In this document: piece after piece, positions 7,499 through 57,235 of the stretch
How positions within the stretch are numbered: position 1 is the first letter of the stretch
Layout: each line of letters starts with the position of its first letter
Assembly: GCA_951406725.2 (NCBI GenBank)
Contig: OX597817.1
Location: 10,602,001-10,666,000 of the forward strand
DNA length: 64,000 nucleotides
From: Octopus vulgaris
Taxonomy: Eukaryota
Reading direction: 5' to 3'
Notes under the pieces: generated by a model
Told to the model about the DNA's origin: nothing
The model's database searches: none
What the model saw: only the letters and a program-made list of their open reading frames with translations
Program-made: the position numbers and the translations under genes

Positions 7499-7881
7499 GG
7501 ATGGATGGAAGCACTCCGTCGGTTACGACGACGAGGGTTCCGGTTGATCCGAATCAACGGAACAGCCTGCTCGTGAAATTAACGTGTAAGTGGCTGAGCA
7601 CTCCACAGACACGTGTACCCTTAACGTAGTTCTCGGGGATATTCAACGAGAGTGACAAGGCCGGCCCTTTGAAATACAGGTACAACAGAAACAGGAAGTA
7701 AGAGTGAGAGAAAGTTGTGGTGAAAGAGTACAGCAGGGATCACCACCATCCCTGCCGGAGCCTCGTGGAGCTTTTAGGTGTTTTCGCTCCAATAAACACT
7801 CACAACGCCCGGTCTGGGAATCGAAACCGCGATCCTGCGACCGCGAGTCCGCTACCCTAACCACTGGGCCATTGCACCTCC
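7499..7881 (-). mobile_element. tRNA-derived SINE family C
   Basis: Head GGAGGTGCAATGGCCCAGTGGTTAGGG...GGTTTCGATTCCC, tail GTCGTAACCGACGGAGTGCTTCCA. TSD TGACAACCAAT. Confidence 0.92.
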
Positions 7882-8639
7882 ACTTGACAACCAATACCAT
7901 GCTTTGGAATATAAAATTTTAAAACCCTCAAATCAAAATACTCAACTTTTAATAATTTTGTCATCCTTAATCCAATTCAAGGAGACAGAGAATACAGAAG
8001 AGAAAATACGCATTTTTAACAAGCATCTTCAGAGGACCTTAACCTACTTACCGCCTTTCAAGAACAACACTATTCTGTTCTTTTTGGTTAACAAGCTGTC
8101 AGTAAACACGCCATTCCTACAAAACTTCTTTTCAGCAGACAAGCGACAAGTCTTAGAAGTTCTTCGCTTTAAAATATGCAATAAACAAACGAAACTACTT
8201 GTTTTCTTTTTTCAACATATTACGCCTATTAGGGTCGTTTTTCTTGGTTTTTTATGTGTGACTCTTTCAAACAAGACGAACTTTATGTTACCTTCTATAG
8301 AGCTTCTAAATATCTTTATTTAAATAGTGGCAACGTTTGGAGAGAGAAAACAGGCGTGGGTAGAAATAATTATTACACAAGAGTGACAAAGAGTAGTACT
8401 AAATATCTTATGAAACTGAACACAGACTGATCTTTCTACCAAATATTTTCTAACGTAATTGCGGTTAACGTAAAACTCAATGTATTATACGTACGTATAT
8501 TTTTTTGTTTTCTACAAAGATGAAGATTAAAATTATGTGTATACCGTATTCGGAAAAATTCAAAAAGAAAAATTTATAGGCCTAAGAATTTGTAGGTCAT
8601 ATGCCTAAGAATAGTTCATGCTAATATCTTGAATGAGAA

Positions 8640-9027
8640 AGGAAGCGAACTGGCGAAATCGTTAGTACGCCGGGCGAATTGCTTAGTGGCATTTCGTCTG
8701 CCGCTACGTTCTGAGTTCAAATTCCGCCGAGGTCGACTTTGCCTTTCATCCTTTCGGGGTCGATTAAATAAGTACCAGTTACGCACTGGGGTCGATATAA
8801 TCGACATAATCCGTTTGTCTGTCCTTGTTTGTCCTCTCTGTGTTTAACCCCTTGTGGGTAGTAAAGAAAAAGGCATTTCGTCTGTCTTTATGTTCTGAGT
8901 TCAAATTCCGCTGAGGTCGACTTTGCCTTTCCTCCTGTCGGATGAAAGTACCAGTTGAGCACCGGGTCGACATAATCGGCTCACTCCTTCCTTGAAATTG
9001 CTGGCTTTGTGCCAAAATTTGAAATCA
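8640..9027 (+). mobile_element. Nested SINE B: a Tx1-tailed copy inserted within an old-tail SINE B
   Basis: Head TGGCGAAATCGTTAG, B-box GTTCAAATTCC. GGCATTTCGTCTG is duplicated at 8688-8700 and 8872-8884 around body+tail2. Confidence 0.85.
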
Positions 9028-9149
9028 CTATTTTGAATGAGAATCTTTTGTTAAAGGATTTTGATATGAAGGTCAATAATGACTTTGTATATAATAGCTC
9101 AGTGAGATGCATATATGTATGGATGCGTGGGCATGGGTGTATATGTGCA

Positions 9150-10263: not shown

Positions 10264-10932
10264 TTATTTACATTTGACGGATATTTGCAGTCACTAAGTA
10301 ATTGTATGATATTTACGTTGGTTGGAACAGAGAATAAATAATTCAGATATAAGCACTCATACGAAAAACTAAACTTAAATTCATATTGATGTGTTTAATG
10401 TTGGGAGCATCAAATATCAGTCAAAGACTATCATTATTTCAATTACAATTCATTAAGATACAACTAATAACCGTGTGTAATTAGCAATCAACAACCAAGT
10501 GGAATTAAATCCGTTTCTGTTGAGTTGTGATCATTCTTGATTTTATCTACTTGCTCTACTTGCTAAAGAGGCGCTTGGAAACAGATCAAACAAATTGCTA
10601 TAATGCACAAACTAATGGACTTTTGTAAATGTTCGTTGAATAAAAATAAATTCCAGTGAGTTGATTTACCGTTAAATATGAAAGAATGTTAAACTATTAA
10701 TATTAATTTCACGAACTCAGAAGGAATTCATTACGCACTTACACGATCTACGAGATATAATAGTTAATTCTTCCTAAAATTGCATCCTAAAAAACCCCAC
10801 AAGAATGATATATTGTTGGCTCTCTCATCGATGAATTTATATACCAAACCTCTTTCAATGTCAGAGGACCCAAACCAAGATTGGCCAAATATACCAGGGG
10901 CATGCGTCTACATTTTCAACTTAAATATATAA

Positions 10933-11316
10933 TGGAAGCACTCCGTCGGTTACGACGACGAGGGTTCCGGTTGATCCGAATCAACGGAACAGCCTGCTCG
11001 TGAAATTAACGTGTAAGTGGCTGAGCACTCCACAGACACGTGTACCCTTAACGTAATTCTCGGGGATATTCAGCGTGACACAAAGAGTGACAAGGCCGGC
11101 CCCTTGAAATACAGGTACAACAGAAACAGGAAGTAAGAGTGAGAGAAAGTTTTTGGTGAAAGAGTACAGCAGGGATCACCACCATCCCCTGCCGGAGCCT
11201 CGTGGAGCTTTAGGTGTTTTCGCTCAATAAACACTCACAACGCCCGGTCTGGGAATCGAAACCGCGATCCTATGACCGCGAGTCCGCTGCCCTAACCACT
11301 GGGCCATTGCGCCTCC
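10933..11316 (-). mobile_element. SINE C, full length
   Basis: 14-bp TSD ACTTAAATATATAA (10919-10932 / 11317-11330). Confidence 0.94.
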
Positions 11317-11520
11317 ACTTAAATATATAAACACATTAGCAGAAACGAGTAGAAACACCGACTTTCGGGAGGTTTTCTACGAGGCGCTGCTGTTTGCTTT
11401 CAAACCACATGGTTCTGGGTGCAGTCCCACAGCGCATCCTTTGGACAAGTATCTTTTACTGTAGCCTCGGACCGAATATCAGTTTCTGCAACATGATAAT
11501 TTACAGAGTGGGCTTGTTAC

Positions 11521-16525: not shown

Positions 16526-16746
16526 AAGGCGGCGAGCTGGCAGAACCGTTAGCACGCCGGGCGAAATGCGTAGCCGTATTTCGTCTGCCGTTACGTTCTG
16601 AGTTCAAATTCCGCCGAGGTCGACTTTGCCTTTCATCCTTTCAGGGTCGATAAATTACACACTGGGGTCGATGTAATCAACTTAATCCGTTTGTCTGTCC
16701 TTGTTTGTCCCCTCTATGTTTAGCCCCTTGTGGGTAATAATGAAAC

Positions 16747-16809
<63 letters not shown>

Positions 16810-17031
16810 TTAAGGCGGCGAGCTGGCAGAACCGTTAGCACGCCGGGCGAAATGCGTAGCCGTATTTCGTCTGCCGTTACGTTCTGAGTTCAAATTCCGC
16901 CGAGGTCGACTTTGCCTTTCATCCTTTCGGGGTCGATAAATTACACACTGGGGTCGATGTAATCAACTTAATCCGCTTGTCTGTCCTTGTTTGTCCCCTC
17001 TATGTTTAGCCCTTGTGGGTAACAATGAAAC
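16526..17031 (+). mobile_element. Two tandem Tx1-tailed SINE B copies separated by (GATA)n
   Basis: 16526-16746 and 16813-17031 are almost identical and share a private deletion (GATAAATTACACACTGG). Confidence 0.9.
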
Positions 17032-17050: not shown

Positions 17051-17450
17051 TTTCTTTATTGGCCACACAGGGCTACACACAGATGGGACAAGTTACAAGG
17101 TAGAGCTTTTCTTTTGGGTGAAGAAAAAAACCAAAAACAAAAAACAAAAGAAACATAAAAAATGTGGCGTAGGTTTTCGATCAAAAGGGATCGTAAAAGG
17201 GAAAAAAAGAACAAAAAATAAAAAAGAAAAAAAAGAAAAAAAGAAAAAAAAGGAAAAGGAACAAAAGAAAAGAGAAATGAAAAAAAGAAGAAAAAAGGGG
17301 AAGAGGAGAAAAAAACGATCAATAGGGATCGTGTATCATAGTGTTATGATGTATGGTGTAAAGGGGAAAGCAAGTAAGGTTTATCCGTGGGAAGAAAAGC
17401 CTACGAAAAAGACCACGGTAACCTTGGTCAATATTGTTATATGTTACCAG
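17051..17450 (-). mobile_element. 3' UTR fragment of a Tx1-type LINE inserted in (GATA)n
   Basis: Ends TGTAGCCCTGTGTGGCCAATAAAGAAA, like the intact LINE tail. Homologous copy at 55125, also in GATA. Confidence 0.6.
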
Positions 17451-26442: not shown

Positions 26443-28011
26443 CTAGCATTATGACCCGTCGTTGCCGGGTCATAGTACTACTGCATGTATATATGTGTAT
26501 ATATATGTACATCTGTATATCTGTATATATATATACATCTACACATAAAATACAAAATACAAAGTTATATCTTGATATCGCTAGTGATAACAATACTCAA
26601 AATATATAACAGAATGGAATTGTAGGCTCGTCTCTTGCAATTTCGATCAATCGTATCTTGTCCTCCCTCTTGTATAGAAGTGTGGCTACAATCCAGCCAA
26701 CCTCTACTTCTGGGAGGGGGGACATTTTAAATTTTTATCCGGGACGTCCTACGTCCCAGATATAAAGGTCGAAAATAAAATATTTACACTTTGCAAGGTT
26801 CGAGTCGAATACTCCCTTGCACAGCTCCGTTGACTCGAACCTTACTTCTATTGTGGCGAATTTACCGCTTCTGGTTAGATATCTTTCATAGTCGCACCAA
26901 GACACTTTTTGATGGTGCTTTCCTCCAGGTGTTCAAATCTTTTTTTTTCTCTATATTGTATACTTTATAGACAATAGTCTTTTCTTTAATTTAATTTTTT
27001 ATTTCGTGTGGTGGTGTTATCCTAGATTCACCGTCTTTGTCGGTGATCAATCCGTATTTCTTCCATTTTAATTTCAATGAGTTCGCGCCCGCCGACGGCT
27101 GCAGCGAAATTCATTTTTGGACTTTCTTCTATCGAAGGCATTCTAACAAAAATGCTTTCGTGTAAACGGTGAAAATATTGTCAATTTCCCCAAACAGGGA
27201 CACAATTCAATTTTTAAACAACAACCAAAGCTCCTTCTCCCAAAGGGGGAGGGTTACAGTTTACAATTATTTAACAAATGCAACACAACAATGTTTCCTT
27301 TACGAGGAACCAACAAACGTGATAACAATAGTTAAACAGTAATAATAATAACAAACCTTACGATGAATCAGAAAGCAGTAAGCAGTTAAAGCTTTAGTCC
27401 TTTATGTATAAGAAATAAACCAACAGCAGTACTCTGTAGGAGCGGCTGTTCGAGAAAACAGATATTACATACAGCCAAACTTCATATAGATACTTAATGC
27501 TAGCTAATTAGCAGATAATCTAATGTAAAAGCACAGCTTCATCTGGACTATTCCATTTCTGAACGCTAATTTTATTTTTAATTTATTCCCATTCATGTGA
27601 AACCACTTATTCAAGTTCAAGTCATTGATGCAATTTTATACCAATTGCTATTTTTACTTTTGTTATGTTACGATTATATTATACTTTAGTTTGATTTTAA
27701 TTATTATTTACTACATATAATTCAATTGTTATTATTATTTTTATTGTTAAAGTGAAAGTATCTGACATAAAATAGAGAAATGTTTTTGTTTCACTCTTAA
27801 CACGTAATACTGAAATAGTAGAGAAGATATGATATTGCTATGGGCTCGCTCTAGGCAAGACGTTGAAAATTTTTTTGCCGATGACACTCCCCGGACCCTA
27901 AGTAAGGCATGTGCAAAATTTGAATAAAATTGGTTGTGTAGTTCTCAAGTTTTAGGGAAACACAGACAGACAGACAGACAGACACACATTCTCAGTTTTA
28001 TATATATAAAG

Positions 28012-31404: not shown

Positions 31405-31440
31405 CACAGAGATCGTTTCTACTGGATACACACGGCCTCA

Positions 31441-31567
31441 ACTTTGGAGGAAGGGATTAAGTTGATTACATCGAACCCAGAGCGTAACTGGTACTTATTT
31501 TATCGACCGAAAGGATGAAAAGCAAAGTCGACCTCAGCGGAATTTGAACGTAACGGCAGACGAAATA
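31441..31567 (-). mobile_element. SINE B fragment starting at TATTTCGTCTGCCG, next to (GATA)n
   Basis: Reverse complement matches the SINE B body. Confidence 0.7.
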
Positions 31568-31570
31568 GTG

Positions 31571-31662
<92 letters not shown>

Positions 31663-33389: not shown

Positions 33390-35430
33390 GGATGGATCGA
33401 TTTATCGATAGATAGATAGATAGATGACTGGTATAGCAATTATTTAGAGTTCAGTTCTTCAATACTTCCACCAGTTATGTAGTTGTCCCGAGTCTATGAA
33501 GTGTTAAATTTCAAACAGAGTAGTTAACATTTTGTGGCATATCATTGTTCAGTTTCTCTACGGTACTTGTATATTTGCCTACTGGGACCAGGAGGCAGTC
33601 TGACTTACAGGAAATTGTATGTTCCACTCCTTAAAAACTTTCTCTTATCTTTTTATCCGTTTTTTTTCCCTTTATTCTTTCTTCTGACTCCTTACTTTTG
33701 GCGAAATAAAATCATTAACTTATCCGAGTAGACATCAAGTTCACTGGCGTCGACATCAGAAGGGCTTCGAGGTGAATCTCATCGGATAAACGCAGTAGCT
33801 TGCTTCTGGGATGAAATCCTCAGTGAATTATTCAAGGAACATTCGAAACTGATCTTTTCTGTTTGGGAGTAAATTTTCAATTCCTTCAATTTCTGATGGA
33901 ATTGATTTCATATTCGCTGTAGTGATGTAGTTTTATATGCTAATCAATGCCATAAAAGTCATTTTTACCATAAATCAAGAAATAAAGAGTTGATGGCTTT
34001 TAAAGTTTGCAAATTTGGGGTAATTCTAGCCAATCGTAAACCACAGACACATCCATGCCTGTTTCCATAGTAACAAGCTAAGCATGAGAACTCTTTTGTC
34101 TGCGACAAAGCACTTGTTGACAAATATATTCTACTCATTGAGGTGGTGGCGAGATATGCAAAAAATAACATTTAAATAGGCCTTAAATCATGCACCCCCA
34201 AATTCTTTGTTTTGGTTTTTGCATAATTGTGGATTCCTCTGTGTAGAATACAAATTTGCAAAAAATTTCTGAAAATTCCAAAAAATAAGAATGTTATGAG
34301 GGGTTGTATGGCGTGCGTAAAGCAGAATTCTGTCAGTATTTCATTTGTTGACAGTTGACAACACGTGCTGTCACGCACAAAATGACAGATTCCAAATCCT
34401 GTTTCCTGACTGAGTGAAAATCATCAAACTTTAAACCTCTATAACATTTTTAAAAAATTTTCTGGCAAAAGTGAAATATCTCTTGAGATTCAACTTGGAA
34501 AATTACATTAATACAATAAACTTTGAAATTTCCACAATTGCAGTCAAGCAGAAAATATCCCTCAAAACAATTTAGTGATTTAATATGCCACCATCCATTC
34601 ACACCAAATTATATGCCTCGTGTGATTGACCCGGTGGTTCTCAAAGCGCTTAGCTCGATGGATTCCGAAAATATCAGTGACTCTGGAGGGATCAGACCAC
34701 GCCATCTGAAAGACCTGTGAGCTCTAACAGAGCTTTAGAGGATCGACAGGGCTGAAAGATATTCTAACATTAAAGTGGAACGTTAGTATTTGGGATGAAG
34801 TTTTTGCTGAATAGTGTGTGTGGGGTCGCCAAGAAAATTCAACAAAGATTATGAGGACTAATACTTGTGGCAACCTTGAATTTTAAACTGTGTGTTATGT
34901 ATGGCAAGACGGGACGAGATACGATATTGTGTTCTTGATATGAGTAGTTACTGGGTCTTTCAAGTTAACTTGCAGAATAACCAGTAGTAACTACTTTATA
35001 CTATCACTTCAACGAAAATGATATTACTATTGCTAAACACAGTTAATATCTTACAGGGTGCACTGGACTACAATCTTCAATGTGCTTTACGTTGCACAGC
35101 AAGTAAACTCGATCAGATAGATTCGATAACCCAATGCAAAATTCTAGTGGACTTCTTACTTTAAAAGCACCATGATTTCGATCTTATTTTTTACGCTCAC
35201 TATTCTATATGAGTTTTATCCATTAGAGATATTAAAACGAATTTACAAAATCAACACACTCGTATATACCATTTTCTATGCCTTCGACATTTTCTTCATC
35301 GAACATACTTTATTGCCTGAAATCAAGTGCTGCGGTGTTTCCATTCTGCTGACATTCTACGCCACGAAAAATTGGTTTGAAGCAGTCAGATTAATGCTGA
35401 AACTGTTCTCAATATTATTATGGAACATAG

Positions 35431-35640
35431 ACGGCGAGTTGGCAGAATTGTTAGCATGCAGGGAAAAATACTTCGCGGCATTTCGTCCGTCTTCACGTTC
35501 TGAGTTCAAATTCTGCCGAGGTCGACTTTGCCTTTCATCCTTTCGGGGTCAATAAAATAAGTACCAGTTGAGTACTGCGGTCGATGTAATAGACTTACCC
35601 ACTTCCCCGAACTTGCTGGTCTTGTGCCAAAATTTGAAAT
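35431..35640 (+). mobile_element. SINE B with old tail
   Basis: Head, body and tail CTTGTGCCAAAATTTGAAAT. Confidence 0.85.
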
Positions 35641-35888
35641 TAATATTATTATAGAATATAAAGGCGGCGAACTGGCAGAATCGTTAGCACGCCGGGAGAA
35701 ATGCTTAGCCGTATTTCGTCTGTCGCACATGTGTTCGTGAAGTAAGAATTGCTGTTTCGTGGTGTTAATATTGTTAACAACTGTTGTTTCTTGTTAAACT
35801 GTTGAATAACTTAACTGTTGGAGTTTTCAATTGAAAACACTTAGTGCTTGTGGTAGCACGCGTTGTTCATTCCCCTTTGGGGGGAAGA

Positions 35889-37376
35889 ATGTCGTCTAGC
35901 ATGGAGCCTACCGTTGGAGCAGAAATACTTGTTTCTCCTGTTGAGAGGAGGAAATACATGTCCGGCGAGGAGCCAACTACAGACAAGGAAATAGGGGTTT
36001 CCCCCGTTACAAGAAGGAATAGCAGAGAGGATAATATATTTGATATTTTTGGAGATGTGTCTGAGAGCTCGTCAGAACTTTCACCAGAAGAGTTTCCGAC
36101 TTTGCCAGAGAACAAAGGCATTGTGTCGAAGAGAATAATTGATGTGCCTAGCATCCAGATAGAACCAAAAAATGGAAAAAAAAGTTTTGCGTTGGCTGCT
36201 GGGGGTGGAACCCAGATACTGTCGACGAATAAAAGCGAAATTATGAAATACAGCAAAATGATGGAAATAACTGACAACGGTGTGAAAATTGAACCTCCGC
36301 AAAAGTTATTACAGGAAGAAAAGCAAAAAACAATAATTTTCAAAACATATTGTCTACAAAAAAGAAAAATTGAAAGAATGTCAGAAGAGAAAATAGAAAA
36401 GTGCTTGAAGCCAATATTGGGCGACGTAGTATTTCTGAGAAGAGGAAAAAAATTCGGAACGGTAGAAGTAAGGTTCACCAATAAAGAAATAGCACACAAG
36501 AACTCAGTTGAAACGTTGAAAACGAACGACGTGGAGTTAATCCCCTATTATATGGGGATGAGGACGTCGCGAATAAAAATTACAAGGGTCCCGCCAGAGG
36601 TCGAACCTATGTGGTTGTTGGCGGCAGTCCTAATCAAAGAGGTAGAAAAAATTACTCTCCTCCAGGCTACCGCTACGGAAAACCCACGCTGGGATGGTCA
36701 AACAATTAATCTTCTCATTCAAGCGGACCCTAAAATAATTCAAACAATTCCTGAGACAATTGAGGTAGGGGAGGAGAACCTCGTGGTGTTTGTTGAGGGC
36801 CGAAAACCTCGATGTTTTTTATGTGGTCAATTAGGCCACATTCGAAGGAACTGCAAGGAAAATGAAGAAGAGGAGGAAGAGGAGAAAAAAGAGGAAGAAG
36901 ATAAGGAAGAAACAGATGAGAAAAAAACAACAAACAAAAGAAAAATACAACCAGCAACCCAGCCGAGAGCGGCGACTACTACAGAACAACGACCAAAAAA
37001 GACTGCCAGAAGAGAAAAAGAAGAAAAAGGCATAATAGCCGTATACACTAAAGATACTGAGCTCATGAGAGACATTCAACTCATAAAGACTGTAAAAAAA
37101 ATTGATAACCTTTCAGAGGAATTTATCAATTACGACATATATGAAGTCTCAAATAAGACTTATAGAATTCTACAAAATAAGTACAGAAAGACTGTATCTT
37201 CATTGAGATTAGATTTTAACAAGTCGATATTTCATGGATTACCAGCTCCGATCCCGCGAGAAAAGGAAAAGGTGGAGATTCCCCCTCCACCTGATAATTC
37301 TGTGTCGGTGGTGAGACGGGATTTTGACAAATCTATTTCCCAAGACCGTCCACCTCCGACCCTGGATCAATCCTAA
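35889..37376 (+). CDS. LINE ORF1, gag-like nucleic-acid-binding protein with CCHC zinc knuckle
   Basis: Intact ~495-aa frame from the first ATG, with CFLCGQLGHIRRNC followed by an acidic/basic tract. Confidence 0.9.
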   Translation: MSSSMEPTVGAEILVSPVERRKYMSGEEPTTDKEIGVSPVTRRNSREDNIFDIFGDVSESSSELSPEEFPTLPENKGIVSKRIIDVPSIQIEPKNGKKSFALAAGGGTQILSTNKSEIMKYSKMMEITDNGVKIEPPQKLLQEEKQKTIIFKTYCLQKRKIERMSEEKIEKCLKPILGDVVFLRRGKKFGTVEVRFTNKEIAHKNSVETLKTNDVELIPYYMGMRTSRIKITRVPPEVEPMWLLAAVLIKEVEKITLLQATATENPRWDGQTINLLIQADPKIIQTIPETIEVGEENLVVFVEGRKPRCFLCGQLGHIRRNCKENEEEEEEEKKEEEDKEETDEKKTTNKRKIQPATQPRAATTTEQRPKKTARREKEEKGIIAVYTKDTELMRDIQLIKTVKKIDNLSEEFINYDIYEVSNKTYRILQNKYRKTVSSLRLDFNKSIFHGLPAPIPREKEKVEIPPPPDNSVSVVRRDFDKSISQDRPPPTLDQS

Positions 37377-37391
37377 TTAAACAGGTAAGTG

Positions 37392-40300
37392 ATGGCTATT
37401 CCCATTGGTTGTTTAAATGTTCATGGCCTGTTGTCAAGCTGGAAGCAAGGACGCTTTCTGAATGACATCAGGTCGAGAAATTTGGATGTAATTGTTGCAA
37501 CGGAAACCCGGATGAAGGGGCCAAGAGATCTGCTCCCCCTCCTGAACGGCTACGAGAAATACGTTTCTCCGAGTCGGGCGGGAGGTGGGGGTGGGGTGTT
37601 GGTCCTACTAAAAAGAAACCGGGTAGCCGAGAAAAAGTTGGTTTTTTCTGACCCAGAAGGCAGGCTGGTCGTTCTCGACTTGACATTCAGTTGTGACAAG
37701 ACAATCAGGCTGGTCGCTATTTACGCACCAAACATTATTGGCCCGCAAACTGAATATTTTCGTGGCCTAGGAAAGTTCCTAGCCACGTCGCATTCACTAG
37801 TAGTGTTAGGAGACTCTAATACAATATGTGCAGCACACACAGATTGTGTTGGCTCAAACTCGAACATGAACAGAAAATGTAACCCAGGCTTTCGGGATCT
37901 GCTAAGTCAATTTCAGCTAGCAGATCCATAGAAGGTTGGAGCACCCGAACACTTCACAGTGGACGTGGTCAAATAGTGATGGGTCTACCAGAACATATCT
38001 AGATAGGATTTTAATTAGAGAAAAAGATAAGTCCATAGTTGAGTGTCCACAGTTTTTTCTAGTCAGCTACAGTGACCACAAGATGGTTACCTGTAAACTG
38101 ACGGTAGATAAGTTGCATAGACAGGGATCTGGCTACTGGAAACTCAATACGTCCCTTTTGGCGATTGAGGAGTACAGAAAGCGGATCAAGATGTTAATAC
38201 AGAGGGCATTAACAGGTACCATCATTAATAACAAATGGTGGTACGCCCTAAAAAGAGCCATCAAATATGAGTCTATTAGGTTTAGCATAAGTTTAGCTAA
38301 GAAGGGACGTAAAATAGGAGATGGTCTAGTTAAGGAACTAGAAGAAGCCTGGAGGACTGGTAATACAGACCAAGCGAGGGTGAAAAGACTGGAGTTAAAC
38401 CAGCATCTTGAAGCCCACCACATGAGAAGTATTACCAGAGCTAAGTTACGTGCAATGGGAAGTGAAGGAATCAAAGCCGCTGGATGGGCCCGAGTGGTGG
38501 AAGCTCGGCAAGGAAATAGTTCCTCTATTCGGTCTTTGACGAATCAAAATGGTGTCTTGATAAACGAACCCGAGAAAATGTGTGAGGTCTTTCAGGAGTA
38601 CTTCGCCCAGCTGTTCGGGGGTGACGGCGGTCCTGGTGGTGGGAGAGCCCTCGAGGACTTTCTTACCGGGCTGCCGTGCCTCTCGGGGTCGGATGCGGAG
38701 TCTTGCGAAGGGCCAATCACACCTGAGGAGGTGATGGAGGCTTTGGCCGATTGTAAAGCGGGTAAGTCACCGGGACTTGATGGTCTTCCGTACGAGCTGT
38801 ATAAATGTATGCCAGACTTGTTCGGGCAACTACTGACTGACGTGTACGCGAACTGGAAACAGAATGGGTTTATCCCCAGATCTGTGCGCCGGGGAGTAGT
38901 GACGTTGGTCAGAAAGGACCCGGACAAGGGGGACGTTCTAGAGAATTTCAGGCCCATCACTCTGTTAAACGCAGAAGTGAAGATTTTGGCCAAGGTTCTA
39001 GCAAAAAGGTTGGCGCGTGTCGCGAATGGTATAGTCGGGGAGGCACAGACATGTGCCATCCCAGGCAGAACCATTCAGGATACCCTCCATCTTATTCGCT
39101 ATACCATAGAGAGGTTTGGTAATAAATCTGGCAAAGGTGGGGCATTGGTGCATTTGGACCAGTCTAAAGCTTTTGATAGGGTTAACCATCGATACCTAGC
39201 GACTGTACTTGCGCGGTTTGGCCTGGGCCTTGGCTTCCTCAGGTGGTTTATCGCTTTGTACCACAACATTGACTCGATAGTTTGGGTGAACGGTTTCCTT
39301 TCGAAGCCGTTCTGCATCAGACGCTCGGTTCGTCAAGGATGTCCGCTTTCACCACTTTTGTATGTGATGGCTCTCGAGCCATTACTGCAAAGGTTGAGTG
39401 GCATCCCGAGAGAACCAGGACTAGAGGAGTTTGTTACGGCTTTCGCGGATGATATCACTATCAGTGTAACCACAGTGGCACGCCTACGTGAAGTAGGTAA
39501 GACTATTGAGGCTTACGAGGAGGTAGCAGGAGCAAAGATTAACCGGGAAAAGTCGGTCGGCTTGCAGCTCGGCACCTGGGTTGGCAAGTCGATGCCTTCA
39601 GACAGTGTTGTTAGGCGCTGGACGGAGGGACCGGTTAAGTTGCTGGGAGTCTGGTTTGGACCAGGCCTCCAGATAGAGAAGAACTGGACGGAGGTATTGA
39701 GCAGGGTGGCTGCAGTAGTCAAGACCTGGTCTTGGCGGTGGCTATCCCTGAAAGGGAGGGCGGAAGTGGCCAATGTGTTTATCGCATCGGTCATTACCTA
39801 CCGCCTGACCGTCGTGCCCTGTCCGGATTCGTGGTTGATCAGGTTGGAGAGACAGCTCTTTCGCTTTTTGTGGAAGGGCAGGTCGCCACTTGTGAAACGC
39901 TCTGTCTGCTGTCAAAAGCCTTTAAATGGAAGGTTAGGGATGCCTTGGTTAATGATGCGCAGACATGCGTTGAGGTTGAGGCACCTCTGGATTCTCCTGG
40001 ATAGTGAACGGGTGTGGTCTCCGCTGGCCAGACAAATGTTCCCTGAGTTCAAGAGTTTTTGCGAACAGGAAGCCTGGTGTTCTCGTAGACCGAGGTCGAG
40101 TGAGTGGCATAAAGAGTGCCGTAAGGCCCTCTTGCTGTTCCGGCGCTCGGGCAACGCCAGCGGTGGGGGTTCCACACGGATTTTATATAGTGGGTTGGTA
40201 GAGTCTGAATGCGACGATGGCCTGGGGTAGACTCTAGGTCTCGGATTTATTTAACTGGACAGCTTGTTTCATCGTACATTCGGGTTGAGAACGTTAGACA

Positions 40301-40797
40301 ACTTCCAAAAGTCCTTAACCTGGCAATGCTACAGAGGTGCCTTGCCCGTTTGGGATAAGCTCGCAAGACATGGTAAACGTCAGTCGCCGACCTGTCCAAG
40401 ATGCGGGGGGGGGGACAGGGAAACCGTCTCTCACGCTATTGTTCTGTGTCCGGAGATAACTGAAATGTGGGCTTATGCTGAACATCTGTTGTCCGGCGAA
40501 GGAAGAGTACGGCTGTCGACTGAGTCAATTATAAAAATTGACCCACCGGGAGTTCTAACGAACGAAGGTAAGAATTGTTTTCTCACGGTTGTAGCAATAG
40601 CAAAAGAGGCTGTATGGAAGACTAGGATAAAAGGAATTAAGACAGGAAACTTTATCTCTGGTGACAATTTACGATCCTTTTTTTCTTTTCATTTGAAAAG
40701 GAAACTGTGGCTGGAGAAGAGGTGTCTGTCAGAGTGTACGTTCCAAAAGAGATGGAAGTATGTTGCACGAGTGTTGTGCGTGCAAGGAACCGTGTGA
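37392..40797 (+). pseudogene. LINE ORF2 (APE endonuclease, reverse transcriptase, C-terminal Zn motif), disrupted
   Basis: LNVHGL, ATETR, LGDSN, YLDRIL, SDH (APE); GYWKLNTSLL, SPGLDGLP, QGCPLSP, FADD (RT); CPRC...HAIVLC. Frameshift/stop near 37930, in-frame stops at 40228 and 40252. Confidence 0.93.
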
Positions 40798-41045
40798 ATA
40801 GACGAGGAAAAAAAAAAAAAGGAAAAATAAAAAGGTATCAGCGGTAGATCGGGGCTTGTGGGATCGGAGCGTAACTTGATCATCGCTTCATTTGTATTGT
40901 TTTTGTACTGTGTATTCCATTCGATTTTTATGTATTGTATTTTATTTTTGATGTCACATTTATGTAAAATCATATCGATTCACTGATCCCATCAGTTGTA
41001 CTGTCCATATCTATGTTTGGCCCCCGGTGGGCAATAAAGAAATTC

Positions 41046-41392
41046 GTATTTTGTCTGCCGTTACGTTCAGAGTTCAAATTCCGCCGAGGTAGACTTTGCC
41101 TTTCATCCTTTCGGGGTCGACAAATTAAGTACCAGTTACGCACTGGGGTCGATATAATCGACTTAATCCGTTTGTCTGTCCTTGTTTGTCCTCTCTGTGT
41201 TTAGCCCCTTGTGGGTAGTAAAGAAATAGGTATTTCGTCTGCCGCTACGTTCTGAGTTCAAATGCTGCCGCGATCGACTTTGCCTTTCGTCCTTCGGGAT
41301 CAATAAAATAAGTACCAGCTGTTTACTTGGGTCGATGTAATCGACTTACCTCCTCCCTCGAAATTGCTGGCCTTGTGCCAAAATTCGAAATC
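41046..41392 (+). mobile_element. SINE B body with Tx1 tail (to 41228), followed by a further SINE B body with old tail starting at the same motif
   Basis: GTATTTCGTCTGCCG recurs at 41230-41244. Confidence 0.87.
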
Positions 41393-41825
41393 CGTAGTAT
41401 TATAGAAAATAAGAACTAAAGGAATGAAAATATAGCTATATTGTAATGTTCATGTTTTTCACTGAAACTGAGGTATTGTCTCTATTCTTCAGTAGCTTAT
41501 ATTTCATTGTACAGCGCTTGTTGAAACATAACAGCTTTGAAGTATTTCATTTTATTTTTTAGCGCCGTAATTCCTAAGATGTACCTCACTATCAATTCCT
41601 GCTTTAAATACTAAATCCAGAGCAGATGTAGGCTAGATGACCTCGGTTAAAGCACGATAGTTACTATTTCTCTGCCCTTATTGTCGGTGCTGAGCATCTA
41701 AGCACGGTGTTGGGTGTTCAGCAAGGCTATTGGTGTTGTAGTTATTTTTGTGTGCATGTGTTACTTATATTTTCGCAAGCGAGAAGAGATGATGTTTTAT
41801 GATGTTTTACTCGTGTTCTTGTATG

Positions 41826-42050
41826 GAGCTGGCAGAAGCTTTAGCACGCCGGGCGAAATGCGTAGCCGTATTTCGTCTGCCGCTACGTTGTGAGTTCAAA
41901 TTCCGCCGAGGTCGACTTTGCCTTTCATCCTTTCGGGGTCGATAAATTAAGTACCAGTTACTCACTGGGGTAGATGTAATCGACTTAATCCGTTTGTCTG
42001 TCCTTGTTTGTCCCCTCTATGTTTAGCCCCTTGTGGGCAATAAAGAAATA
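41826..42050 (+). mobile_element. Tx1-tailed SINE B
   Basis: TSD TCTTGTATG (41817-41825 / 42051-42059). Confidence 0.9.
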
Positions 42051-42450
42051 TCTTGTATGTCGTTTAGGTCAAGATAGTGGAAGTTGATTTTTTCATATCG
42101 CAACAAGGCTTAAGTAAGCTGAAGCTTACTGTGGCAATAAACTGTGGCTGTCGTAGGTTCAAGTAAATTTTAATTCTTAGTATTTTTGTTTTTTGTTGCG
42201 CAGTTAGTCTGCGGTTGGGATCTATGTACAACCTGTTATAATGCGTTGCACACCTGTTTCAAGTTTTTTGTAGTGTATTATGATTTGTAGTGGAGGGATT
42301 GTGGTCCCAGGTATAGGACTAGCACAATCCATAATAGATCTAATGAACTGTTTGTACATCATTTCATTGTTTTCTTTCTGTTGGCCAAACGTCTAACTTG
42401 TTGATTTATGTTTGTGTCGATTTGCTTTCTTTAGTCTCCTATAAATATTA

Positions 42451-43802
42451 CACTGATCAACAAAATAAAACTTCTATTTTCTGGCATAAATTGTTTTAGA
42501 CTAATTTTTAGGTGCTGATTCCAAAACTGACCTCAGATTTGCTCAATCCCATCACATTTTTGTGCCATCGGTATAACCTTTATTGATCTGGCGCATACCA
42601 AAAGTTAGCTTTACACCACTATTTGTGGGTATTTTGACTGGATTGTCATGCTAATTTTGAATATGTTCAAGTTGAGTTTTGCTTTAAAACCCTTCCTCTT
42701 CTTTTCAGGTGTGAACTGAGCTACTGTGGTCTAGTTATGGATACAACATCAAAAAGGACTTACTATAATGATCCCGATATCTTCTGTTACATCTGAGGAA
42801 ACGCCACCCCACAGGCTTAGCGGTACAACATTAATAACTTTGTCAAGAAGGTGTATCTTGTTCACTCTAAAGTAGCACTTAGAGACCAGGACAAAACCTA
42901 GGCTCCCCACAAAGTTTGCAAAACCTCTGTTGAGAATTGGTGTAATGAAGCAATTTATCAAAGATCTTGATCACAATGGAGACTGCTTCAGATATATATG
43001 TACATTTGTACAACCTTTCCCGGTCTCGGTGATGATAAAAAGAAGGCAAGAATATTTGATAAATCTCAAATAAGAACACTCTTCAGGGATCCACATTTTA
43101 TTAAAGCAATGAGTACGGCGGAGGCTAGAGCTTGGAATGCTTTCTCTGATGTAATACGGAATTTCCTTGACAGCTGACAACTATCAAGAGATTGTGGAGG
43201 GGCTGCTCTTGAGCTTGCAAGCACTTGGATGTAGAATGAGCATTTAATTGCTCTACTTACACAGCCACTTCGGTGACTTTCCAGAGAAACTGGGTGATGT
43301 TAGCGAAAAACAAGGTGAATGCTTTCATTAAGATGCAAAAGTAAAGGAAGAACGCTACTAAGGCTGATGGGGCTCAAACATGATGGCGGATTACTGCTGG
43401 AGCTTAATGAGAGACTCCCAGAAGCTGTACGCAAGCGATCGGGAAAAAAGAGGAAATTTATACGATGATCATAATGAATGACCACAATGAATAGAGATTT
43501 GTATTCATATTTTGTTATAACCAAGCTTAATTCTTATATGCTAATGTGCATTTACTCACACAACTTTGTGTATTGATTTATTACATTAAAAAAAGACATT
43601 GTTTATTAAAAATTGCATCTACGTATGTTTAATTTCTTCTTTTATGAGCATTAAATAGCTGTTTGTAGCGAGACTAAAAGATATTATATCTAAAAAATGT
43701 GATATGATAGACAAAAGCTGATGCCAAATTTGGATTCAGCACTCTAAAATTAGCTAAAGACCACTAATAAATCTTGTGCCAGAAAATATGTGTTGACCAG
43801 CG
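42451..43802 (+). mobile_element. Internally deleted Tc1/mariner-related DNA transposon (Tc4/m44-like)
   Basis: TIR CACTGATCAACA / TGTTGACCAGCG with longer imperfect sub-terminal IRs and TTA on both flanks. Remnant peptides NDPDIFCYI, DQDKT*APHKVC, GVMKQFIK, YLHSHFGDFPEKLGDVSEKQGECFH, MMADYCWSL. Confidence 0.8.
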
Positions 43803-45406: not shown

Positions 45407-45850
45407 AAGGCGGCGAGGTGGCAGAAACGTTAGCACGCCGGGCGAAATGCTTAGCGGTATTTCGTCTGCCGCTACGTTCTGAGTTCAAATTCCGCCGAGG
45501 TCGACTTTGCCTTTCATCCTTTCGGGGTCGATAAATTAAGTACCAGTTACGTACTGAGGTCGATATAATCGACTTAATCCGTTTGTCTGTCCTTGTTTGT
45601 CCTCTTTCTGTGTTTAGCCCGGCATCGGTTGTCAAGCAATGTTGGGGGGACAGACACACAAACATATACAGACACATATATACGACGGGCTTCTTTTCAA
45701 TTTTCGTCTACCAAATCCATCCATTCACAGGGCTTTGGTCGGCCCGAGGCTATAGTAGAAGAACACGTGCCCAAGTGTTCCGGGTTCAGTCCCACGCTTA
45801 CAAACCATGTAGTTTGTAAGCAAGCTACTTACCACATAGCCACTCCTACG
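45407..45850. mobile_element. SINE B (+, Tx1 tail cut at ~45620) abutting a degenerate SINE A (-)
   Basis: The sequence switches at GTTTAGCCC|GGCATCGGTTGTCAAG. Confidence 0.8.
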
Positions 45851-50667: not shown

Positions 50668-51050
50668 GGGAAGCACTCCGTCGGTTACGACGACGAGGGT
50701 TCCGGTTGATCCGAATCAACGGAACAGCCTGCTCGTGAAATTAACGTGTAAGTGGCTGAGCACTCCACAGACACATGTACCCTTAACGTAGTTCTCGGGG
50801 ATATTCAGCGTGACACAGAGAGTGACAAGGCCGGTCCTTTGAAATACAGGTACAACAGAAACAGGAAGTAAGAGTGAGAGAAAGTTGTGGTGAAAGAGTA
50901 CAGCAGGGATCACCACCATCCCCTGCCGGAGCCTCGTGGAGCTTTAGGTGTTTTCGCTCAATAAACACTCACAACGCCCGGTCTGGGAATCGAAACCGCG
51001 ATCCTATGACCGCGAGTCCGCTGCCCTAACCACTGGGCCATTGCGCCTCC
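50668..51050 (-). mobile_element. SINE C, full length
   Basis: TSD ACCATCCTAGAT. Confidence 0.93.
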
Positions 51051-52039
51051 ACAACCATCCTAGATACGACCATACTGTCTGTTCTTTTAGAACAATGTAT
51101 ACATTTTCCAAAGAAGGTACGGTATCACTTTAGGGAGACTGGGTTGTAGCTGATCAAACGAAGACATAGAATCATCTTCATGCCCGTGTTATGAGTTTCT
51201 CTTGTACGGTTGAACATATTTAATGCAAAGCATCAAAAATCAAAGTAGATATACTAAGGCGGCGAGAAGAGAAAATAAAACTCAAGTAGCTTTACATTAT
51301 TTCTGTCATGTCGACAATTACAGTAAACAAATCCGAACAAGTTTCTATATTATTAAACCTCTACAGCGAAACAGAAACTTCATCTTACTTATCGAAGTAG
51401 TGATAAGGGTATCGTTATGTAGGATTTCAGTTCTGTAATGTCAGTAAGCGTGGGGGGTTGGTATATTTAGAAAACCAAAACAACCGTTTTATATGGTTGA
51501 CATCTCATACTTTCGATGTTTTTAGAGTAGGGTGTTTAAGATATAAATTATTTTTATTCGTACAAGAGATAGAATAGCAAGTAAAAGGGAAGGCTTGGCG
51601 GGGAAATCAGCAGGCGTTATGGCAAAGAACGTGCCATAAGCGAATGCGAAAATTCTTATTATTGACATTGCGACAGCATAATGTTTAGTGACAATAATTA
51701 GCGTTATAAATGAAAGGAAATGGCCCCAACTGAGAATAAGAACTTGATAATAGATTCAGTTTACCAAGAACTTACTGTAACATTACATCGTAGAACTACA
51801 TTACTGAAACATGTGGCCTCTATTAGGATGGGAGTTGATTTATTCTGTCAGGAAACTGCAGTACTTTGCCAGCAATTAAGTTATCGTGTCTCTATCAAGT
51901 GCGGTTTGAACTCATCATTTTTTAAAAATTATGTATATATAAGAATAAATACCGCATAACTTTTTTTATTTGATATCCCATCCAAGAAGTAGAGATAGAA
52001 TATTTCTTTGACAAGACACAAAGCCCTCTTGTGCGTGTG

Positions 52040-52854: not shown

Positions 52855-52866
52855 TGATAGATAGAT

Positions 52867-53249
52867 GGAGGTGCAATGGCCCAGTAGTTAGGGCAGCGGA
52901 CTCGTGGTCGTAGGATCGTGGTTTCGATTCCCAGACCGGGCGTTGTGAGTGTTTATTGAGCGAAAACACCTAAAAGCTCCACGAGGCTCCGGCAGGGGAT
53001 GGTGGTGATCCCTGCTGTACTCTTTCACCACAACTTTCTCTCACTCTTACTTCCTGTTTCTGTTGTACCTGTATTTCAAAGGGCCGGCCTTTTTACTCTC
53101 TGTGTCACGCTGAATATCCCCGAGAACTGCATTAAGGGTACACGTGTCTGTGGAGTGCTCAGCCACTTACACGTTAATTTCACGAACAGGCTGTTCCGTT
53201 GATTGGTTCAACCGGAACCCTCGTCGTCGTAACCGACGGAGTGCTTCCA
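52867..53249 (+). mobile_element. SINE C after (GATA)n, within a cluster of old SINE B remnants (~52715-54040)
   Basis: Matches the family consensus. Confidence 0.9.
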
Positions 53250-54889
53250 GCTTTTTACGTTCTGAATTTCAATCTCCCCAAGGTCAGCCTTATTTTTCAT
53301 TCTTTCGGAAAATGAGGGTCAATAAAGTAAAGTAGCAGTCAAATACTGGGTTCGATTTAATCGACGAACCTTCTCCTCATAAAACTGCTGGCTTTGCACC
53401 TAAATTAGAAACTATTTATTTATAAGGTGGTGGGAAGTGCAGAATCGTTAGATCGTCAGGCGAATACCTTGTGGTATTCGTCCAAGCTCTTTACGTTCTG
53501 AGTTCAAATTCTTCCGAGGTCAACTTCGCCTTTCATCCTTTCGAGGCCGATAGAATAAAGTATCAGTCAAGTCAAGGGATCACAACCCTCAAACTTGTAA
53601 CCTTGTGATTATATTAAAAACCCTTTAGATTCAAATCCCTGGTTTGATTTGATTTTCATCCTTCCAGGGTCTATAATATAAAGTACTCATCCAGTACAGG
53701 TGTCGATACAATCGTCTGCTCCTTCCCCACCGCAAATTTCCGGCCTTCTCTATATGTAAGAAATCATTAATATTTATTTATTCCTCATACAATCGCGATT
53801 AAATAGTGTTAATTGTTTAACCTTTCGGTGACCAGAGGTGCTCAGCAAGAAGTGAATAACCATATTGATTTCTTTAGGGAAGAGAATAATCGGTTATATC
53901 GATCGACCCAGTACTTGAGGATACTTTATTTTATTAACCCGGGAAGGATAAATGAAAAAGTCGATCCTCAGTTAAACTATCAGGGCTATTACTATATACT
54001 GTAAGGCATTTTGTCTGACACAGTTGTACCAATCCACCATAGCCGCCGCCGCCACCGCCACCACCACCACCACCACCACCACCACATAATCGGATACTGC
54101 AGAGTATTTTAGTCCGGCAGTCTTATATTTTCTGTCGCTCTATCACACTGTGACTCATAAAAAGTGACTATCGTGTCTTAGCAAGACATAAATCCACGCA
54201 AGTTGTTGTTTACCCCCAGGTCAGCCATGGTTGAGCAAACTTACGATCAAGAGCATTGACCATACAGTCTTGTTTGAGGGAGCAGAAAACCCAGGACCGC
54301 TTTAGCCAACGAGCTCTGGTTCAAGAACAAGAGATGGTTTGAAAGAGATATAGCAGCCATTTCTATCAGATCAAATGATCGCGTAAAACAGTGGTTTCTT
54401 ACCTTGCACACTTACCCTTTATATTTTAATGGCAGTGCCCTTGGAAATTCCACAGTAAATACGAAATTTTGTATATGGTTGAAAGTTTATATAGAACCCT
54501 AAAAGTTAGTTTCTTTTGAAATTGTATATTCTGCCTTATTTTCATTTCAAAATAAATTTCAGTATTTCTGGATAAGACTGTAATTGAGAGAGCATTACTT
54601 TCCCATTCTCTCTGCCGTTCAGCGGTTCATAAAAAATCTTAAATTATAAATCTAAGATCATTGTAACAATGATTACAGGAAATATTCATGTTACTAACGC
54701 TGTAAATTTCAGGCATATGTTTACATTTTTTTGTTGTTGTTGTTGGGTTTATGAATTATGCTCAAGGTGGCTTCGTCATTCATACGTGCCATCCTTGCTA
54801 CATTCACCCATCATTTTTTGAAACATTCGCTAGACAAAACTTGCCTCTCTACTCTTACTTTCCTGTTCAAGTGATACTTGAAGAAGTTG

Positions 54890-55500
<611 letters not shown>

Positions 55501-57000: not shown

Positions 57001-57004
57001 GTGA

Positions 57005-57235
57005 AGACGGCAAGCTGGCAGAATCGTTAGCGCGCCGGGCGAAATGCTTAGCGGTATTTCGTCTGTCGTTACGTTCTGGGTTCAAATTCCGCCGAGGTCG
57101 ACTTTGCCTTTCATCCTTTCGGGGTCGATAAATAAAGTACCAGTTTCGCACTGGGGTCGATGTAATCGACTTAATCCCTTTGTCTGTCCTTGTTTGTCCC
57201 CTCTGTGTTTAGCCCTTTGTGGGCAGTAAAGAAAT
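57005..57235 (+). mobile_element. Tx1-tailed SINE B
   Basis: Ends GCCCTTTGTGGGCAGTAAAGAAAT. Confidence 0.9.

Follow-up and report, generated by a model that had tools for sequence, protein, structure and literature searches.

A young octopus SINE shares a poly(A)-less 3' tail with L1/Tx1-type elements and lies, in part, at a LINE target site inside older SINE copies

Results

An L1/Tx1-type LINE inside a SINE

We analyzed a 64,000-nucleotide stretch of the Octopus vulgaris genome (contig OX597817.1, positions 10,602,001 to 10,666,000; hereafter the window), in which a LINE interrupts a copy of a short repeat, SINE B, within a larger composite. Its parts, with the neighboring SINE, are as follows.

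35429..35641 (+): old SINE B monomer with the end called tail1, adjoining the LINE composite
35644..35661 (+): left outer target-site duplication (TSD) of the composite, AT-rich, 16/18 with 41395-41412
35661..35709 (+): SINE B head with A-box-like motif, 5' of the LINE
35710..35722 (+): left LINE TSD, 13 bp, which is the SINE target site; 12/13 with 41045-41057
35723..41044 (+): L1/Tx1-type LINE, full-length copy without poly(A), with breaks in ORF2 near 37931 and 40228
35835..37376 (+): ORF1, stop-to-stop frame of 513 aa, zf-CCHC
37389..40797 (+): ORF2 in three pieces, with AP-type endonuclease (Exo_endo_phos), RT (RVT_1) and zf-RVT
40996..41044 (+): LINE 3' tail, ~48 nt, common to the SINEs with the end called tail2 and to two microsatellite-resident elements
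41045..41057 (+): right LINE TSD, 13 bp
41045..41228 (+): tail2 SINE B unit, the remainder of the SINE hosting the LINE
41229..41394 (+): tail1 SINE B unit without a head, its first letter at the target site
41395..41412 (+): right outer TSD of the composite

Immediately 5' of its TSD the LINE terminates in AATAAAGAAATT and, unlike mammalian-type (relaxed) L1, has no poly(A). When a profile of ORF2 from this LINE and 19 relatives was compared with the PDB, human L1 ORF2p was matched at E 1e-118 vs. 1e-37 for R2, and the ORF2 is therefore nearer to L1 than to R2-type elements. With the same profile an L1/Tx1-loop chimera (2v0r) scored 88.8 bits vs. 84.9 for the L1 endonuclease; it was absent when the window's own loop region was searched, and we set it aside. 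An RT tree of 19 rows grouped the LINE with two Argonauta proteins and one unnamed protein (support 97/97). The best named relative among the matches listed was an Argonauta hians protein (60%), and no named Tx1 protein was among the 240 matches listed. These relationships point to a host that is probably an octopod. The label Tx1 appears to fit the anatomy and the target preference with TSD, the RT tree being one from which named Tx1 references were absent. The ESM Atlas returned only generic RT clusters for the LINE, and 80 metagenome loci held distant relatives at 24-43% identity. The "TX1" of PMC4176376 is the name of a protein fragment and irrelevant to the LINE. Elsewhere in the window, a decayed ORF1-like remnant (26627-27071, -) is 30% identical to the LINE ORF1 and has no SINE head upstream.

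SINE B has two tails

SINE B is short, dispersed and high-copy, with TSDs and thousands of matching contigs per public sequencing run; 16 units or fragments were aligned within the 64-kb window. The alignment revealed two ends, the older tail1 and the younger, derived tail2, and no poly(A) at the SINE B end; tail2 is a LINE-type 3' end replacing the old tail. The tail2 copies discussed below, besides those in composites, are the following.

16526..17031 (+): tail2 SINE B inside a (GATA)n run, a local duplicate pair (16526 and 16812)
41826..42050 (+): dispersed tail2 SINE B with a 9-bp TSD (41817-41825 / 42051-42059), the partner in the 31/34 match given below
45407..45620 (+): tail2 SINE B whose tail is interrupted by a SINE A copy (cut at 45619); A-box-like motif at 45419, target site at 45456, B-box-like motif at 45483
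57004..57235 (+): tail2 SINE B inside a (TA)n run, box-like motifs at 57016/57080

The first-pass annotation had described diverged SINE B copies with one tail and near-identical copies with a LINE-type tail. Our alignment bears this out: body identity was 92% among tail2 copies (15 pairs, six copies) vs. 80% among tail1 copies (10 pairs, the five units showing tail1), with the local duplicate at 16812 left out of the identity sets, and tail2 is for this reason taken as the younger form. Motifs resembling A and B boxes were matched in the SINE head at 45419/45483 and 57016/57080, by the usual box consensus. ARAGORN reported no tRNA in the window, and an Rfam search with one copy gave no match for the head. 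No name for SINE B could be derived from the accessible part of PMC4824008.

Several further observations concern these repeats. Both copies of the pair at 16526-17031 carry a common 11-nt deletion and terminate in GAAAC as the microsatellite-resident elements do, yet face the opposite microsatellite strand. A head-less SINE unit at 31439-31573 (-) follows a (GATA)n run and starts from the target site; with a tail2-like 5' part and a tail1-like end, it is possibly an intermediate subfamily. The same AT-rich site of ~18 bp flanks two successive tail1 SINE insertions (35411, 35642, 41395), which suggests that the partner element of tail1 reuses sites. SINE A (1995-2433 and six more copies) measures ~420 bp, has an internal TA/TG tract and has 24 nt of low-complexity sequence in common with the linker that precedes tail2. 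Another young repeat family of ~385 bp is 94-98% identical across four copies (7505-7885, 10932-11320, 50669-51052 and 52866-53249). The stretch at 42400-43460 resembles a decayed DNA-transposase remnant.

The tail belongs to a group of LINE-type ends

The first-pass annotation rested on a match between two 34-mers, one at the LINE end (41010-41043) and one at a SINE B end (42016-42049). Both read as quoted there and agree at 31 of 34 positions. This is the best of five LINE-SINE pairs: over a 33-nt core, from which the copy at 17030 was left out because of one gap, the LINE matches the five SINE tails at 26, 28, 27, 30 and 27 of 33 positions. The copy at 42016 is the best-matching SINE, and the depth-majority form of tail2 in public contigs differs from the LINE at 42019 (X2, X4 and X1, three of four runs). 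The shared module extends over ~48 nt rather than 34 and was found in three LINE-type ends and six SINE copies. A degenerate pattern of the tail occurred at eight places in the window vs. none in each of 100 shuffles. It was absent from the viral and metagenome contigs searched, and the tail had no match on the 80 metagenome loci with distant LINE relatives (best E 2.2). A GGGTAGT variant of the tail is present in both units that lie inside other SINE B copies (8837-8869 and 41194-41226) and absent from the three other copies of the core table.

Besides the LINE at 35723-41044, two elements in microsatellites, which the first-pass annotation had overlooked, carry the tail.

17051..17440 (-): 3' UTR of LINE-like character, 5'-truncated and ending in this tail, within a (CTAT)n run; it has no coding part in the window
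55124..55340 (-): second copy of this element, same tail (at 55126), in a (CTAT)n run

Both are pyrimidine-rich, 5'-truncated and clearly related to each other, and they align to tail2 over 49-50 nt. Against the same five SINE tails, the 17051 element matches at 26-29 and the 55126 element at 26-27 of 33 positions; summed, the LINE reaches 138/165, the 17051 element 136/165 and the 55126 element 132/165. In these longer alignments, five of six SINE tails give the 17051 element a higher score than the LINE, and one gives an equal score. A fragment resembling the LINE C-terminus (47%) begins in the same microsatellite at 54891 (-), and the 17051 and 55126 elements are unlinked to coding sequence in the window. 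This ORF2 C-terminus-like fragment (54739-54891, -; 47% over 32 aa, E 7e-4) lies directly after the (CTAT)n run and has no 3' tail. Loose contig ends contained further non-SINE sequence 5' of the tail in three runs (7, 2 and 4 contigs). Judging by these alignments, the tail is the end of a group of L1/Tx1-type elements and no signature of the LINE at 35723-41044 alone. In another run, X7, the loose ends of 12 contigs before 41994 had a different sequence 5' of this tail, which may belong to a further SINE body.

The direction of transfer might also be reversed, with LINEs gaining the tail from the SINE by read-through into a downstream SINE followed by deletion. The LINE does lie upstream of the tail2 unit at 41045-41228, an arrangement that would suit such an event. 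The LINE-type tails, however, differ from one another at 7-9 of 33 positions, more than the tail2 copies do (93% pairwise), and the microsatellite-resident elements carry the tail as well. For both reasons the tail looks older in the LINE group, and we regard transfer from SINE to LINE as very improbable.

In the stem-loop proposed in the first-pass annotation, the GCCC and GGGC segments can pair, but covariation was no higher than in shuffles. A single hairpin accommodates the nine tails: 95.5% of 89 cells were paired, vs. 46-52% once the pairing was slid. One of the ten pairs was changed on both sides, and a covariation score as high was reached in 290 of 500 shuffles. Seven tails folded singly gave energies no better than shuffles (z -1.3 to +0.7), and in read-through RNA the pairing of the tail with the downstream site was likewise no better than shuffles (z -0.5 and +0.6). 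A hairpin in the tail is plausible.

The LINE family probably favors one site in SINE B

The target site of the LINE lies between the A-box-like and B-box-like motifs of the SINE head. A TSD of 16 bp was considered and replaced by one of 13 bp. The LINE sits inside SINE B, as the first-pass annotation had it, and its fixed site there is upheld by the 13-bp TSD and by family contigs that reach the site; family specificity was judged from the contigs of five of the 24 listed public runs, through short overlaps. In run X2, six LINE-family contigs showed 8 differences in 2400 nt from the window copy (~0.3%), at a depth of 75-112 vs. 5.4 for a flank contig, depth being no copy number. One family contig of X2 passes the tail to 41056 at a depth of 87, and a contig of X4 ends at 41051, so that overlaps with the site at the LINE 3' end come to 7-12 letters (X4, X2), with depths of 75-90 in X2. 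On the other side, family contigs of X15 and X7 begin at 35698 and include 25 letters of the SINE head. Extension into the site was thus seen in four runs, which accords with target preference with TSD, each time by fewer than the 31 letters set as the bridge threshold. Contigs assembled from many copies are expected to end where the sequences around those copies part, and by this reasoning most copies appear to share the site. These data suggest, as a hint of fair strength and not as a count, that ~15 near-identical LINE copies lie mostly at the SINE site.

Two composites hold a tail2 SINE unit within a tail1 copy

A second composite in the window has the same order of parts as the one around the LINE.

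8639..9028 (+): old head, young tail2 unit (to 8869) and old tail1 unit from 8872

Its inner TSD (8688/8872) matches at 13/13 and its outer TSD (8625/9029) at 14/15. Since outer TSDs enclose both composites, the head and the tail1 unit of each represent one original SINE. At 8639-9028 the head differs from a four-copy tail2 reference at 10 of 49 positions, as tail1 monomers do (9-12 of 49), the insert at 9/168 and the second unit at 9/59 (head vs. insert, Fisher p=0.003 in a post hoc test, picked after the alignment was seen). The identical 13-bp repeat carries a locus-specific variant at both junctions, and the head is joined seamlessly to the insert. At the 35661 locus, where the counts are 4/49 for the head and 9/168 for the insert, the test is uninformative (p=0.5), and of the two composites only that at 8639 shows a significant age mosaic. 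The head of the dispersed copy at 41826 was left out of the head counts because it is 5'-truncated and flank was aligned in its place.

These structures could instead be dimeric SINEs mobilized whole by way of tail1, or they could have arisen when abundant copies recombined or underwent gene conversion, with the LINE alone being site-specific. Outer TSDs flanking whole composites would suit that account, as would the lack of an age mosaic at 35661, and the two tail2 copies checked contain no four-T run, so that a read-through dimer RNA is possible. The second units, however, are of different subtypes and differ at 31/149 positions, which argues against a single dimeric master; the insert at 8639 is much younger than the head and the second unit around it; and the inner 13/13 repeat, with its locus-specific variant in both copies, has the length and position of the LINE's TSD. 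We therefore consider dimers or recombination a quite unlikely source of the composites. The simplest reading of the 8639 sequence is that a young tail2 unit was inserted, without a second head, into an old tail1 copy with the stagger of the LINE. From this one informative locus we infer that old copies may be seamlessly overwritten.

Tail2 SINEs land at several kinds of site

Five independent tail2 copies in the window have intact 3' ends, not counting the local duplicate at 16812 and the copy at 45407, whose 3' end is cut. Two of them, lying inside older tail1 SINEs, are followed by a head-less tail1 unit that starts exactly at the LINE site (8872 and 41229), in agreement with the earlier claim that the SINE sometimes inserts into other SINE B copies. 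In a rough model of uniform insertion, the chance that two copies in five fall on a single position is p ~6e-6. The remaining three lie in (GATA)n, in (TA)n and at a dispersed site with the 9-bp TSD. That TSD (41817-41825, 42051-42059) loosely resembles the SINE site, ending in GTATG vs. GTCTG, in this one case.

In public runs X2, X4 and X1, the largest class of tail2 ends comprised 380, 49 and 209 contigs, with a consensus starting AGTATTT at an agreement of only 0.40-0.43. Further classes were (TA)n (108, 13 and 44 contigs) and CAAATA/CAGATA (46, 4 and 19). Contig counts understate self-insertions, because these collapse into few contigs. Most distinct tail2 junctions lie outside the SINE site, their flanks are diverse, and self-targeting accounts for only a share. 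The LINE and the tail2 SINE use a common target, as in systems of the Tx1-Mar/SINEU type.

The tail was probably donated by a relative of the LINE

According to the first-pass annotation, the LINE lands in SINE B, has donated its tail to the SINE and now mobilizes it; in the strict form of this account the landing itself supplied the tail, and the family is the SINE's sole carrier. It draws on the 31/34 match, on the LINE's position in SINE B and on the marginal lead of the LINE among the three ends over the 33-nt core (138 vs. 136 and 132 of 165). The tail, however, meets the SINE body ~120 nt 3' of the target site, and tail2 cannot therefore be the product of a simple truncated insertion there; such an insertion would also have removed the B box. 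Age, too, speaks against the LINE as the source: its ~0.3% divergence from the majority form of its family makes it ~10 times younger than the tail2 copies, which diverge by 2.5-7.4% from their own window consensus. The SINE hosting the LINE already had tail2 when the LINE landed. Nor is the tail this LINE's own, as the two microsatellite-resident ends match the SINE tails equally well, the 17051 element surpassing it in the longer alignments as described, and three of the five intact tail2 copies lie away from the site. Donation by this family as sole carrier is thus unlikely. Depth over the RT region at 88% likeness was several times the LINE family's own depth, from which we conclude that related LINE families exist, among which the donor might be found. 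Our best description of the donor is an ancestral or sister element within the group. The SINE-LINE pair and the self-targeting are themselves fairly well supported.

Discussion

Our preferred reading, which we hold to be probable, is that young SINE B copies carry the ~48-nt, poly(A)-less tail of an L1/Tx1-type group and are likely copied by several of its members, one of which inserts at a fixed 13-bp site between the A- and B-box-like motifs, where young SINEs also lie inside old ones. The SINE likely rides on the LINEs that share its tail, and it is likely to supply and renew the sites at which they land.

Such a system could have arisen in three steps. In the first, a single event of template switching or recombination would have brought the tail into the tail1 lineage, its source being an ancestral or sister element within the group. 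The ORF2 proteins of the group would recognize the folded tail, and the SINE would therefore inherit the target of whichever family copies it, whether that is the SINE site, a (TA)n or (GATA)n run, or a less strict site. In a SINE-into-SINE insertion carried out by the SINE-targeting family, the SINE cDNA would find its complement in the 13-nt staggered end, which would anneal to it and prime second-strand synthesis, with the old head joined to a new body and tail. No seam would be expected at this junction, because the passenger carries the whole site. A tail1 locus would become a tail2-ended unit, and one target site would become two. We infer this cDNA-annealing step from the form of the SINE-into-SINE junctions.

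More tentatively, and with somewhat less than even confidence, we suggest that this amounts to SINE homing. With the carrier's target site contained in the passenger RNA, each SINE-into-SINE insertion would be sealed by 13-nt homology, reuse the old head and A box, supply a fresh B box and tail, and double the site. In this way the young subfamily would take over old loci and multiply the landing sites open to SINE and LINE alike, a positive feedback that may lie behind the abundance of this octopus SINE. The group would also be the first in animals among L1/Tx1 elements shown to choose its RNA by a folded tail and not by poly(A).

If the ~48-nt poly(A)-less tail of an animal group serves families with different targets, natural variants would allow two questions to be tested, namely what guides L1-type proteins to their RNA when poly(A) is absent, and by what means an AP-type endonuclease changes its target. 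The counting and dating of SINE copies should also take account of a passenger that serves as its own target, because a single locus can combine a head and a body of different ages. Builders of insertion tools may further take an interest in a site-specific AP-type retroelement whose tail is short and portable.

For O. vulgaris itself, an annotation of 2026 reports 13 recently active L1-Tx1 families and SINEs making up 11.6% of the assembly; the words "target" and "nested" are absent from its accessible text (PMC13282606). Among accessible titles, abstracts and passages, which do not extend to subscription papers, Repbase and supplements, we found no description of a LINE that targets its own partner SINE, and the accessible part of PMC10886601 has no passage on self-targeting.

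The closest known case is that of the Tx1-Mar LINEs and SINEU of crocodilians, which share a target in a Mariner transposon and have poly(A) ends; no LINE with the 3' end of SINEU-1 was found there (Kojima 2015, PMC4494074). As with SINE B, a mobile element provides the target that a Tx1-type LINE and its SINE passenger have in common. In that case the target is a Mariner DNA transposon, the heads derive from snRNA and the ends are poly(A), whereas SINE B is its own target, shares a tail without poly(A) and has no Rfam match in its head. The same work describes passengers that read out different Tx1 targets, different LINE families giving them different target choices (PMC4494074). Target-specific Tx1 families include Tx1 in Tx1D, Keno in U2, Kibi and Koshi in microsatellites, Dewa and Mutsu (PMC4494074, PMC3706591). 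Like the LINE described here, they use multicopy targets and have sister families on microsatellites; unlike it, they have, among the targets described in the accessible text, neither a SINE nor a passenger of their own.

Shared tails in the L1 clade are known from ZmSINE2/3 with LINE1-1_ZM and from SINEX-3_CR with L1-1_CR, and SINEs with L1 tails make up three of 58 SINE/LINE pairs, in grasses and an alga (Ohshima 2013, PMC3747384). These pairs resemble SINE B in a conserved 3' end of ~45-50 nt with a hairpin, common to L1-clade LINEs and SINEs. They are found in plants and an alga, with no target specificity described in the accessible text, whereas the SINE B pair is from an animal. For R1 and R2, annealing of the cDNA to the cleaved top strand gives precise 5' junctions, and ancestral R1 had a fixed 14-bp TSD (PMC2718515); there the homology consists of a few bases or of co-transcribed rRNA, whereas the SINE B passenger contains the whole target site.

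In molluscs, one SINE body can carry the tails of different LINE partners (PMC11481361, PMC4758252). The bivalve SINE paper explains tandem SINEs by recombination between TSDs, and Tx1 does not occur in its accessible text. This exchange of tails on a single body is the feature that mollusc SINEs have in common with SINE B. The families of the present system may be listed in Repbase, Dfam or the repeat library of PMC13282606, and the system combines known kinds of arrangement: a stringent-type tail on an animal L1/Tx1 group, and a passenger that is its own target.
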